A DNA stretch of 64,000 nt from positions 96,001 through 160,000 of the forward strand of contig CAWGMA010000001.1 of the NCBI GenBank assembly GCA_963823555.1, read 5' to 3'. This DNA comes from Candidatus Eiseniibacteriota bacterium (GTDB lineage: Bacteria; Eisenbacteria; RBG-16-71-46; CAVPCR01). The number at the start of each line of letters is the position of its first letter. Position 1 is the stretch's first letter. A model generated the notes under the pieces. It saw only the letters and a list, made by a program, of their open reading frames with translations, did no database searches and was not told the DNA's origin. A program made the translations under genes and the position numbers. Shown one piece after another: positions 32,494-51,372 of the stretch.

Positions 32494-32973
32494 CTAGCGG
32501 AACATCTGCTTGATCTCACCCCAGGTGCCGGACTCCACGGCGGTGGCTCCGCCCTGAATCTGGGCACGGATCTCACCGCCCGGGAACTGGGTCGTGTGGA
32601 CGTTCACGTAGAGGTTGCCGTTCTGTAGATCAGGCAAGTCCGCGGCAGCGAACATGATCTGCCCCTGGAAGCCGCTCGGGAAGGGACCTGCCGAGAGCGG
32701 GTAGACGACCGCGCCGTTGATCCCGGCGGGCGCGCGGTGGATATGCGATGCCGTCGTCGTGCCGAGGAGATCCTGGTAGTCGATCTGGAAGGTCATGATG
32801 AGGGTGACATCGTTGAGAACCGCCGTGAAGGTGCCCGTCCCCGGTGAGGGATTCGGTGGGACCTCGTTCGTGCCGTTCAGGTTGGCGACCCAGTTGCTGG
32901 CCTGGGCGGTGCCGGCAAAGCCGATGGCGACGACGGCGGTCAATACCAGGATGCGCTGAATCCTGCTGTTCAT
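32494..32973 (-). CDS. Secreted CHRD-domain protein with TWGxIK C-terminal tail
   Basis: GGAGG RBS; signal peptide; NEVPP, ASHIH and GNLYVNVHTTQFPGGEIRAQI; ends ATAVESGTWGEIKQMFR. Confidence 0.9.
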   Translation of the reverse strand: MNSRIQRILVLTAVVAIGFAGTAQASNWVANLNGTNEVPPNPSPGTGTFTAVLNDVTLIMTFQIDYQDLLGTTTASHIHRAPAGINGAVVYPLSAGPFPSGFQGQIMFAAADLPDLQNGNLYVNVHTTQFPGGEIRAQIQGGATAVESGTWGEIKQMFR

Positions 32974-33108
32974 GATTGCCTCCGAGATGGCGATGCGAAG
33001 AGCCGGCACCAGGCGAGGCTCCGGGAGCCTGCCGGCCATGGTCGGGGGACCCGTGTCGTTGGGATCGCGCCGAGCCGGCAACCGGTTCAGATGATGAGGA
33101 CTTCGTGA

Positions 33109-33636
33109 CTAACCGGATGACTCGGTGATCTTCGCCAGGGCCTCGAGAGCGGATTGCATCTCCGCCTCGGACTTGGCGACGGTCGCCTTGCGATCTTCGG
33201 GCTTGCTCTCATCGGTATATTGCTCGATGAGGGTCACCTTGGTCCCGGCGGCGGTGGGCTGGAGCAGGATCTTGGCCTGACACAGGTAGGAGCCGTTGGT
33301 CGGCTCGTGGGCCACGCGGAGTTCCTTCTCCTTGGCCATGTAGGTGACGATCGAGCGCCCGCCATTCCCGTAATCGTCCTTGAATTCGACCGAGTCGCCG
33401 ACCTTGGCAAGCGATATCGCCTTGTTTCCCTCGCTCTTCCAGGCGGGGCACCAGACCGCCAGGCTCTGGCCCGAGGTCATGTGCTGCCACACCTTGGCGG
33501 GCGGTGCGTTGATCTCCTTGGCCACGGTGAAGCGGACCGCTGGAATCTCCTCCGCGGCCTGGCCCGCAGTGGAGAGCATCAATGTCGGTGCCATGGCAAG
33601 GGCGACAATCAGAGCAATGGGTTCGGGACCACGCAT
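33109..33636 (-). CDS. SRPBCC/START-like domain protein with signal peptide
   Basis: EINAPPAKVWQHMT...W, GTKVTLIEQ and a C-terminal helix (LEALAKITE). Confidence 0.75.
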   Translation of the reverse strand: MRGPEPIALIVALAMAPTLMLSTAGQAAEEIPAVRFTVAKEINAPPAKVWQHMTSGQSLAVWCPAWKSEGNKAISLAKVGDSVEFKDDYGNGGRSIVTYMAKEKELRVAHEPTNGSYLCQAKILLQPTAAGTKVTLIEQYTDESKPEDRKATVAKSEAEMQSALEALAKITESSG

Positions 33637-33877
33637 GATCCAATCCTCCGCGAAGCGAAGCTTCGTCATCCCTCGTTGAGAGCTCGAAACGAGGTCCGCA
33701 ACCACGGGGGTGGTGCGGCCGGAACTTGAAGATGCGAGGCTAGCCCACTCACGCCGGTCCGCGCAAGCGGCACAGCGGTATCATGCTCTTGTCATGAATA
33801 CATGATGTTCTCGCCATCGCGCGGATTCGGAGAGGCGGCTGCGAAAGTCGGTGTTGCCGGTGGCGCCTGAACACGTG

Positions 33878-34069
33878 CTAGTCGGCCCGAAGCCCGGCCC
33901 ACTTCAAGATCGACATCATCGGGCACCAGTGAGAGATGGCCGACTGGAACAGGTTGGCGCCGACGAAGGCGGTAAAGGCGAAGAACCAGGGATTCACCCA
34001 GACTCCAAGCGCGACCGAGATGAGCACGAAGATGCCGGCGATGGCGCGCAGTGCTTCGTTGATGGTCAT
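33878..34069 (-). CDS. DUF2892 (YgaP-like) small membrane protein
   Basis: RAIAGIFVL...FVGANLFQSAISHWCPM; GGAGG RBS. Confidence 0.85.
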   Translation of the reverse strand: MTINEALRAIAGIFVLISVALGVWVNPWFFAFTAFVGANLFQSAISHWCPMMSILKWAGLRAD

Positions 34070-34114
34070 TGTATCGATTCCTCCTTGCAGATGATTCAAC
34101 CCGAGGGGCATGTC

Positions 34115-34402
34115 TCAGGCCATGCGCTCGACGGGGACGACGAAGAGCTTGGACACCCGATCCCCGGCGGCGTCGCGCCGGCGAGCCAGCTCGGTGAACA
34201 GCCGCGCCGCCTGCGCGTCCTCCTCGACGACGAGGAGCATGACGAGCCCACCCGGATGGACGCGATCTCCGGCGTGGACACCGGTCTCTCCCGCTCCCTC
34301 GAGCACCGGGCACGCGGTGTAGCCCGCCACACCGATCTCATGGAGATCGGCGCGGATGGTGTCGAGCCGGGCCGCATCGGCCATCATCATGACCATCTTC
34401 AT
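34115..34402 (-). CDS. P-II-like small protein
   Basis: MKMVMM...GVAGYT...EGAGETG...KLFVVPVE fits the P-II fold pattern; ATGA-coupled to the RND gene with a GAAGGAGG RBS. Confidence 0.65.
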
Positions 34403-49955: not shown

Positions 49956-49976
49956 GCTTTCCGGGCCGCTTCAGTT

Positions 49977-50569
49977 CTAGCGGTAGATGCTCTTGATGCT
50001 GCCCCAGGTCGACGGCTCGACCGCGGTCGCGCCGCAGTAGGAGACGCTGGTGAAGGTGATCACGTAGTCGCCACCGTCTGTGGTGGTGTTGACCCAACGG
50101 CAACCGGCGCCGTGGCCGTCGCGCACCCACTCGAAGTCGGGAACAGGGTTTCGTTTGCCGGGCCGCGGGGATCCCGGTTGTACTTGCTGATGGCGATCAG
50201 GTACTGCCCGGGCGTGTTGATCGTGCAATTGCTGAAGCTGCCGATCAACGACTGGAGCCCCGGATCACAGGTGTCGTCATCCCAGGTCACGGGGACGCCA
50301 TCCTCGCGGAAGAGGAACAACTGGGTGTCCCAGGTGGTCGTCCCACACGTCTGGGCGCTGAAGGTCCCGGGATCGTCAACCCGGATGCAGTACATGTCGA
50401 CATCCATTGCGGGCATTGTGCCCTGGATCGTGGCGAGCGGGCCGCCACCGATCGGAATCTGGGCCGTCGCCGGCAGATCCCCGGCGTCGCCCTGCTCGAC
50501 CCACTGTCCCATCGCCGGGGCGGCGAGCAGCACCCCCAGAGCCACGGTGTACGCTAGCAGAGCCCTCAT
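49977..50569 (-). CDS. Secreted DVUA0089-like protein with TWGxIK tail (paralog 3); one-base deletion near 50098
   Basis: The N-terminal part is in one frame and WVNTT...ATAVEPSTWGSIKSIYR in another. Restoring one G gives PVAGWV, as in the paralogs. Confidence 0.82.
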
Positions 50570-50677
50570 GTTGTCCTCCTCAAGCTGGTACCAAGCCTTG
50601 GTGAACAGACAGCCGCCAGCGCTTGAGCGGCTGTGATGAACTGTAAGGACTATATCATGATGAGGTCATGAAATCAA
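50570..50677. repeat. Duplicated 108-bp upstream region, copy 1 (pairs with 51373-51480)
   Basis: Ungapped alignment by eye with the second copy; contains promoter, UTR hairpin and RBS. Confidence 0.9.
50649..50677 (-). promoter_or_regulatory. sigma70 promoter with extended -10 and spacer palindrome
   Basis: TTGATT-17 bp-TATAGT with TG before the -10; the spacer is TCATGA-N5-TCATGA. Confidence 0.75.
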
Positions 50678-50703
50678 GGAGTGCTCACGCCATCCCGCCG
50701 GGT

Positions 50704-50742
50704 GAACGAACGGCCCGGGACCCCCTCGGGGGCCCGGGCCGT
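50704..50742 (-). terminator. Intrinsic terminator of paralog 4
   Basis: ACGGCCCGGG-CCCC-cgag-GGGGt-CCCGGGCCGT followed by tcgttc. Confidence 0.7.
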
Positions 50743-50763
50743 GAGATCGAGGCCGGTTCGATC

Positions 50764-51372
50764 CTAGCGGTAGATGCTCTTGATGCTGCCCCAGGTCGAC
50801 GGCTCGACCGCGGTCGCGCCGCAGTAAGAAACGCCAGCCAGGGCGATCGTGTAGGCGCCACCCGCTGAGGTGTTGTTGATCCAGCCGGCAACCGGGTTCG
50901 CTGCTCCGGTACCATCAACGCAGTGTTCGGCTGTCCCGGAGAGCCACAGCGTGGCGCCCGCGGCGTCGACCGGGTCCCGGTTGTACCGGCTCACCGCCAG
51001 CAGGTACTGGCCCGGGCCGGCGAAGTTCGGGCAGGCGGTCGTGGCGGCGCCGATCTGCGACTGCAGGCCGCAGGCATCATCGTTCATTCCGATGCCGAGG
51101 CCGTCCTCGCGGAAGAGGAAGATCTGCGTGTCGTAGGAAGCGCCGTTGCATGTCCCGGCAAGGAAGCCGGCCGGGTCGTCGATGCGGATGCAGTACATGT
51201 CGACATCGTTCGCGTCGAGAGTACCCGCGATCGTGGCCAGCGGACCCCCGCCGACCGGAACCTGGGCGCTCCCGGGCAGATCGCCCGCGTCGCCCTGCTC
51301 GACCCACTGTGCCATCGCCGGGGCGGCGAGCAACACGCCCAAAGCTACGGCATACGCTAGCAAAGCCCTCAT
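50764..51372 (-). CDS. Secreted DVUA0089-like protein with TWGxIK tail (paralog 4)
   Basis: GAGGAGG RBS; signal peptide; WVEQGDAGDLP, DTQIFLF and NDD; ends ATAVEPSTWGSIKSIYR. Confidence 0.88.
   Translation of the reverse strand: MRALLAYAVALGVLLAAPAMAQWVEQGDAGDLPGSAQVPVGGGPLATIAGTLDANDVDMYCIRIDDPAGFLAGTCNGASYDTQIFLFREDGLGIGMNDDACGLQSQIGAATTACPNFAGPGQYLLAVSRYNRDPVDAAGATLWLSGTAEHCVDGTGAANPVAGWINNTSAGGAYTIALAGVSYCGATAVEPSTWGSIKSIYR

Follow-up and report, generated by a model that had tools for sequence, protein, structure and literature searches.

A short C-terminal tail on unrelated exported proteins of Eisenbacteria and other uncultured phyla, a probable sorting tag linked to the SprA-PorV-PorU system

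Type IX secretion is described, in the accessible parts of the sources, as confined to Bacteroidota or to the Fibrobacterota, Chlorobiota and Bacteroidota (FCB) group, and its cargo is recognised by the presence of a folded beta domain no shorter than 43 residues. According to the available text of one such source, the described signals are beta-structured and have motifs B, D and E, and for HBP35 a stretch of 22 residues is enough for GFP export (PMC11969387). For Porphyromonas gingivalis, the part of the literature at hand gives X/(GSA)(VLI) as the measured site of PorU (PMC4560394), and in cryogenic electron microscopy structures of SprA-PorV with a C-terminal domain (CTD), as presented in the accessible text, a near-invariant C-terminal Lys touches PorV (PMC10994853). 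Here we analysed a stretch of 64,000 nucleotides from a Candidatus Eiseniibacteriota bacterium (the window; positions 96,001 to 160,000 of the forward strand of contig CAWGMA010000001.1, assembly GCA_963823555.1), where an initial annotation had noticed one and the same short tail at the ends of five secreted proteins of two different folds. The data lead to the conclusion that this tail is a widespread, apparently undescribed C-terminal sorting tag, which is tied to SprA-PorV-PorU by its swaps with other tags, by its linker and by its distribution.

To find the tail in the whole host genome (4.62 Mb, 92.5% complete), 73,655 six-frame open reading frames (ORFs) were scanned with the pattern [ST][WF]G.[IVL]K. 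This gave 111 matches, 97 of them within 8 residues of the stop and 104 within 11, while the reversed pattern, serving as a control, gave 2 matches across 121 genomes. The tail does not occur by chance, and its C-terminal position is borne out by the scan. The initial annotation had placed the tail always at the extreme C-terminus; this is nearly strict, the exceptions being internal copies in two lipoproteins and one metagenomic protein where the motif is followed by a TIGR04183 CTD. A position matrix collected 108 ORFs with the tail no more than 30 residues from the end, plus two internal copies. The consensus comprises 16 residues, [TV]-[AP]-V-E-[PESAD]-[SAT]-[TS]-W-G-x-[IV]-K-[AS]-x-[YF]-R-stop, where W, G and K are invariant in alignments of 54 and 87 rows (in part a consequence of the search pattern) and V-E stands at a fixed spacing. 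The invariant Lys is most often five residues from the end (50 of 108 tails), the mean net charge of the tail is about +1.7, and 39 of 97 tails have a single Arg, with no Arg cluster. The tail has no transmembrane helix, and only one of 86 tail proteins bears a transmembrane-like stretch beyond its N-terminus.

The proteins bearing the tail are predicted to be exported and are diverse. As judged by a hydrophobicity heuristic only, 68 of 86 tail genes encode signal peptides, compared to 150 of 222 CTD genes and 873 of 2937 others, so that the supposed co-occurrence of the tail with signal peptides is supported; many of the misses are fragments, and the count becomes 84 of 108 tail ORFs with starts selected to fit. 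Of sufficient length for comparison were 101 cargo regions; they fell into 57 blastp clusters, which supports the initial claim that the tail sits on unrelated proteins and is not tied to a few folds. Pfam matches were found for 20 of the 71 tail proteins scanned, and 51 remained without a match; the domain types comprise CHRD, lamin-tail, beta-helix, PD40, RCC1, LamG, PKD, NHL, multihaem cytochrome c, DUF4350, DUF4397 and DUF7450. Tail proteins have a median size of 245 and a maximum of 496 aa (84 proteins with a defined start); for CTD proteins the median is 676 aa and the longest has 2170 aa. At C1:1650359-1653512 of the host genome (G000), three tandem lipoprotein-like genes carry the tail and belong to no Pfam or NCBIfam family; two of them encode two domains, with a copy of the tail after each domain.

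Evidence for the function of the tail comes from its exchange with other C-terminal tags. In the host genome, 250 ORFs end in a FlgD-Ig CTD resembling the type A signal of the type IX system, and not one of them is among the 108 tail ORFs, so the two kinds of tails do coexist in the genome, as initially stated, without overlap. A CTD-tailed paralogue exists for 40 tail proteins, and the alignment reaches the junction in 27 of them: for example, GATAVE continues as PSTWG in a tail protein, and the corresponding GVVAVE as DEANG and then the CTD in its counterpart. A CTD-tailed paralogue exists for the DVUA0089 proteins of the window, too. Among the best 120 of 1038 DVUA0089 homologues, 72 end in the tail (70 by regular expression and 2 by eye; three of the 72 are the window's own proteins), 40 in PEP-CTERM (39 by regular expression, 1 by eye), three in a FlgD-Ig CTD, two in a dockerin-like segment (by eye) and three in nothing clear, the CTD forms being undercounted under a length filter of 88-291 aa. 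For the LamG domain (35 homologues), the tail was found in 14 cases, a PF18962/PF13860 CTD in 11 and neither in 10. The swapping that the initial annotation proposed to test for is thus confirmed among homologues, at the same junction, for both FlgD-Ig CTDs and PEP-CTERM. The tail is modular, C-terminal and mutually exclusive with the Ig-like CTD, with which it is exchanged at the same linker, and all of its named swap partners lead to the surface.

The linkers themselves are alike. CTD linkers of the host genome follow [TA]-[GA]-[VI]-[AGED], and the tail starts with [TV]-[AP]-V-E; this likeness to CTD linkers and to the PorU site X/(GSA)(VLI) argues for reading of the tail by a type IX-like system. 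The residue at the would-be P1' position of the 108 tails is Ala in 46, Pro in 45 and Gly in 2. Near the end, K/R occupies position -6 in 208 of 250 CTDs, and the modal position of the tail Lys is -5; given the Lys contact with PorV in the available text of the structural work (PMC10994853), this similarity also speaks for type IX-like recognition.

The shape of the tail was modelled with AlphaFold2 for a LamG cargo protein (15-row alignment). The domain has a predicted local distance difference test score (pLDDT) >90, and the tail is predicted to be a separate seven-residue helix (residues 197-203, pLDDT about 50), with no confident packing against the LamG domain; its hydrophobic face would consist of W0, I3 and L6/Y7. 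The helical reading given in the initial annotation holds in part: it is backed by this model and by the hydrophobic-residue moment of 135 tails from other genomes (0.309 at 100 degrees vs. a maximum of 0.181 in 200 shuffles), but not by the Eisenberg-scale moment of 99 tails of the host genome, which at 100 degrees (0.401) stays below the shuffle maximum (0.413) and is higher at strand angles. With moderate confidence, the tail may be regarded as a short helix that becomes ordered only upon binding.

As to the machinery, the host genome encodes SprA (TIGR04189, 451 bits) and PorU (NF033707, 475 bits), with porU lying directly upstream of a PorV-family gene in a porU-porV operon and five more PorV-family genes scoring above the cut-off. 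Neither exosortase (PF09721) nor PEP-CTERM was found in this genome. GldM, the component of the PorL/M motor and PorK/N ring that was looked for, and PorP/SprF (TIGR03519) gave no matches there, the control searches being silent too in both cases. The conserved operon (C1:701094-715022) comprises porU, porV, genes for two proteins whose only match, if any, is a weak one to DUF5683, for an NHL protein, for a 1151-aa protein without annotation that has a barrel-type C-terminus and weakly matches the SprA model, and for an Omp85 protein. Among the regions read, the 1151-aa gene is present in all five from other Eisenbacteria and absent from those of Latescibacterota.

To compare the distributions, 75 genomes were scored with a hidden Markov model (HMM) of the tail and with the PorU model (thresholds 0.01 and 0.001). 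The tail together with PorU was found in 38 genomes, PorU only in 13, neither in 24, and the tail alone in none; in the 38 tail-positive genomes, PorU scored above the cut-off in 36 and was cut by contig ends in 2. As to the dedicated processing or transport protein that the initial annotation suggested seeking by profiling, SprA and the porU-porV operon are candidate machinery, and the tail is nested within the PorU-positive genomes, but a dedicated reader was not found. No conserved neighbour, including any barrel gene, stands beside the tail genes (about 160 flanking loci), and no tail-specific gene is found around porU-porV (20 regions).

Several candidates for a gene that accompanies the tail were rejected. 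The stand-alone PorV paralogue at C1:1490698 has no match in 11 tail-rich Latescibacterota and is present in two tail-null ones. The copy number of the PorV family does not follow the tail either, with 10-37 matches (matches, not genes) in ten tail-null Latescibacterota vs. 7-13 in ten tail-rich ones. SprA, present in 29 of 30 and in 21 of 22 tail-rich genomes, is not discriminating (43 of 44 genomes). Exosortase as the tail enzyme was discarded with PF09721 absent from three of five tail-rich genomes (G000, G134, G187); in the other two, G094 and G251, it accompanies their own PEP-CTERM genes. Finally, descent from PEP-CTERM, suggested by the likeness of AVEPATWG to VPEPATW, was dismissed on an hhalign probability of 0.5%, the Pro after Glu being a habit of the host genome (13 of 137 tails elsewhere).

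Outside the host genome, a stop-anchored pattern (anchored on TRR, which covers stops but also TGG) detects the tail in 116 of 121 Eisenbacteria genomes and in 57 of 61 Krumholzibacteriota. The Latescibacterota are split, with 17-61 matches of the tail HMM in 10 genomes and none in 22, both groups having been chosen from pattern counts. A scan of the collection (at least 132 stretches) shows Eisenbacteria, Krumholzibacteriota, Latescibacterota and Gemmatimonadota among the matches listed, plus single short contigs of three other groups; single matches in records titled Acidobacteriota and Planctomycetota lie on contigs <5 kb. A longer form of the tail, A-V-x-P-x-G-K-L-x-T-T-W-G-x-I-K, has 116 distinct metagenomic matches, nearly all within 14 residues of the stop, and seven of them end right at the Lys. 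Four of the ten long-form clusters looked up bear the name Candidatus Poribacteria, and no other taxon name was on any of them. In one protein (L298:667-1455, minus strand), the Poribacteria-type tail is followed directly by a TIGR04183 CTD, and in another (L323) the motif is doubled in tandem. A Desulfobacterales-titled genome (G276) with two real tails and no PorU, which is outside the 75 genomes counted, was set aside: the contigs with the tails are probably mis-binned, as they are short (4.6 and 12.9 kb) and their tail proteins resemble, by eye, those of Latescibacterota. Two viral contigs from IMG/VR (L220, L221) encode a signal-peptide protein with the tail, representing either host DNA or a phage-borne cargo gene.

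The initial idea of a compact export or surface-anchoring signal thus finds support in the swaps, the signal peptides, the C-terminal position and the lack of any library model for the tail. We tentatively favour a more specific reading, for which the chances appear close to even though somewhat below, namely that the tail is a miniature secretion signal for a type IX-like SprA-PorV-PorU system. According to this scheme, Sec would bring the tailed protein to the periplasm, where the protein would fold. The free W-G-x-I-K-x-x-Y helix with its invariant Lys would then be bound in SprA, in place of a CTD, by the PorV shuttle encoded beside porU, and small cargo (<500 aa) would thereby reach the cell surface. 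About half of the tails, those with X/[AGS]-V-E linkers, might be cleaved by PorU, while the P-V-E half would keep the tail. The short functional CTDs and the 22-residue minimum, as given in the accessible text (PMC11969387), provide a precedent for a shrunken type IX signal.

A number of observations weigh against such a miniature signal. The tail is predicted to be helical, while the described type IX signals have a beta structure. Pro at P1' is known to disfavour protease cleavage, and it stands at the would-be P1' in 72 of 137 tails elsewhere and in the 45 of 108 host tails, vs. only 9 of 147 CTD linkers. Tail cargo does not exceed 496 aa, while CTD proteins reach 2170 aa. Thirteen of the 75 genomes have PorU without the tail; on the PorV and Omp85 trees these PorU-positive, tail-null genomes make up two groups other than the single clade formed by the three single-contig PorU-less genomes. 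The latter placement is a strong caveat: the tail and PorU may have been lost together in one event, on which the nesting would then rest, and PorU-less genomes have also lost most of their CTD cargo. The Lys contact with PorV is, in the accessible part of the structural paper, not conserved, and recognition is by shape (PMC10994853). Poribacteria carry the long form of the tail; Kamke et al., in the portion of their paper at hand, describe CTD-like domains in single-cell genomes of Poribacteria and found no structural genes of the type IX system there (PMC3909097). Lastly, the internal copies in two lipoproteins and the tail preceding a CTD in L298 fit a retained docking site better.

Apart from the missing porU, the porV operon of the three single-contig PorU-less genomes is intact. 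G169, G181 and G183 (L242-L244) together with 21 other Latescibacterota have no full-length PorU and few CTD cargo, and where tested, SprA is present in these 24 genomes and PorV-family genes are numerous (up to 37 matches), possibly representing a sortase-free variant of type IX secretion.

Several of the points raised against the miniature signal turn in favour of its main rival, a retained docking peptide, a minimal ligand comparable to a dockerin, which would bind a CTD-bearing carrier or a surface scaffold, such that small passengers piggyback through SprA or are captured and the link with PorU is indirect. We regard this as a serious rival, though the less likely of the two. It would explain why about half of the tails have Pro at P1', why there is a size limit, why the tail may be repeated after each domain, doubled, or succeeded by a CTD, and it agrees with the dockerin-like segment that takes the place of the tail in two DVUA0089 homologues, as well as with the free helix of the AlphaFold2 model. 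Still, no carrier emerged from the loci around the tail genes or from the porU-porV regions, the tandem or internal cases are rare (one of the 116 long-form matches and two in the host genome), and the linker resembles that of CTDs. A bolder formulation, speculative and on balance rather improbable, would be a new class of sorting signal that is neither transmembrane nor a beta domain. Here, a helix of seven residues would be recognised by a separate reader, either a piggyback carrier with a CTD or a surface scaffold. In this way, as many as a hundred or so small proteins of one genome would pass through an SprA translocon that possibly has no motor, and this in no fewer than four uncultured phyla.

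Two other explanations seem to us unlikely, to about the same degree. The tail could be a short cationic amphipathic helix sticking to a membrane or to lipopolysaccharide without any protein receptor, for instance at the periplasmic face of the outer membrane; its hydrophobic face, its positive charge and its presence on lipoproteins agree with this, but the invariance of W, G and K and the fixed V-E spacing do not, nor does a helix of only about seven residues, with some long-form matches stopping at the Lys, or the exchange with surface-export tags. Alternatively, the tail might be part of some other, so far unrecognised system for export, processing or turnover, its co-occurrence with type IX genes being incidental. 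Indeed, it is unlike the CTD in sequence and fold, the PorU-positive genomes without it leave room for a reader encoded by a separable gene, and PorU and SprA are near-universal in these phyla, which makes co-occurrence weak evidence. On the other hand, the 24 PorU-less genomes contain no tail, the linker is shared and swaps with the CTD take place inside one genome, and the candidates considered, the stand-alone PorV paralogue and exosortase, do not track the tail. That the tail is just a structural element of the cargo folds is hardly credible and is refuted by the swaps: we found no point in its support, the tail occurs in 57 unrelated clusters with 11 different Pfam domain types plus NF038127, homologues lack it or end in another tag instead, and in the LamG model it shows no confident packing on the domain.

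In the window itself, all five tails lie where the initial annotation had put them, on the minus strand, each directly before the stop, and the family assignments hold as well, with PF07452 matching one protein and NF038127 the other four. The CHRD-domain protein (32494..32973; 159 aa; PF07452, E 1e-28) has a signal peptide and the tail TAVESGTWGEIKQMFR (32497..32544). Three intact DVUA0089-family proteins, all above the NF038127 cut-off and with signal peptides, are encoded at 46552..47166 (204 aa; tail APVEPATWGQIKAIYH, 46555..46602), 49092..49697 (201 aa; tail TAVEPATWGGIKSIYR, 49095..49142) and 50764..51372 (202 aa; tail TAVEPSTWGSIKSIYR, 50767..50814). A paralogue of the last gene elsewhere in the genome (C2:615957-616925) bears a FlgD-Ig CTD in place of the tail. 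The remaining DVUA0089-family gene (49977..50569; tail TAVEPSTWGSIKSIYR, 49980..50027) is frameshifted: with 593 nt it is one base shorter than its paralogues (two close ones compared), the single-base gap lies near 50160, and NF038127 matches only the N-terminal frame (50063-50569). The missing base places the signal peptide and the tail in different frames, so that of the five signal-peptide proteins initially claimed, four are intact and one is a frameshifted gene, either an assembly error or a pseudogene. Several comparable apparent frameshifts occur among the tail genes of the genome.

Other genes of the window include two with a FlgD-Ig CTD, at 27113-27301 and 60644-60841, both on the minus strand. 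An RND-type efflux gene (34115-37615, minus strand) seems to switch frame near the C-terminus of its translation, into the next small gene. A radical SAM protein of the CUAEP/CCAEP-tail type (NF040546, 639 bits) is encoded at 43738-45120 (plus strand), in a frame reading W-F-C, TGA, A-E-P, which suggests that the TGA likely specifies selenocysteine; an ATP-grasp gene lies nearby at 45198-46481 (minus strand).

The tail appears to be new to the databases and to the literature searched. None of 87 tails matches an NCBIfam or Pfam family common to more than one member, TIGR04183, PF18962 and PF13860 included; a sequence search of the PDB gave two chance matches only (E 1.5 and 1.7), and the ESM Atlas no usable match. 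It thus holds true that no library model in NCBIfam, Pfam or the PDB covers the tail. No description of it was found in the full-text literature, most subscription journals and supplements being outside the search. If the proposed role is correct, the view of what SprA-PorV can read would have to change to accommodate a helical signal of 16 residues, and the tail would be the smallest outer-membrane export tag of the SprA pore by a wide margin. It would also provide an annotation rule: in Eisenbacteria, Krumholzibacteriota, Latescibacterota and Poribacteria, tail proteins without any Pfam match (51 of 71 scanned) could be marked as likely to lie at the surface.

Among known signals, the closest is the type A CTD of the type IX system (TIGR04183, PF18962 and the FlgD-Ig form PF13860). 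Just as this CTD, the tail occupies the extreme C-terminus of Sec-exported proteins in dozens to hundreds of copies per genome, has no transmembrane helix, follows a similar linker, carries a conserved near-terminal Lys (a putative equivalence) and shares cargo families within the same genomes. Unlike it, the tail has 16 residues rather than 70-100, is predicted to be a helix and not a beta-sandwich, lacks motifs B and D, has Pro at P1' in about half of the cases, is borne by cargo <500 aa and gives no score against type A models. The short CTDs of Prevotella intermedia, in the accessible account (PMC11969387), are an example of a type IX signal reduced in size; they are still cleaved and have been modelled on PorV, but with 43-55 aa they keep three beta-strands and motifs B, D and E, and the tail is a third as long and unrelated in sequence. 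The type B CTD (TIGR04131) with its PorP/SprF shuttles is, as far as the available text of PMC12618676 goes, a precedent for a second signal class that uses the same translocon with its own shuttle; it comprises 150-235 aa and has an adjacent shuttle gene, whereas the tail genes have no recurring barrel neighbour. Like the signals of the PEP-CTERM/exosortase type, the tail is a short tag at the C-terminus of numerous small proteins unrelated to one another, including the same DVUA0089 cargo at the same junction. From these and from the tripartite signals, as characterised in the accessible part of the survey of small sorting signals (bioRxiv 10.1101/2023.06.07.544157), it differs by having neither a transmembrane helix nor an Arg cluster nor any profile similarity; yet it shows five of the seven attributes of such signals, being terminal, multicopy, equipped with invariant residues, accompanied by a signal peptide and attached to unrelated cargo.

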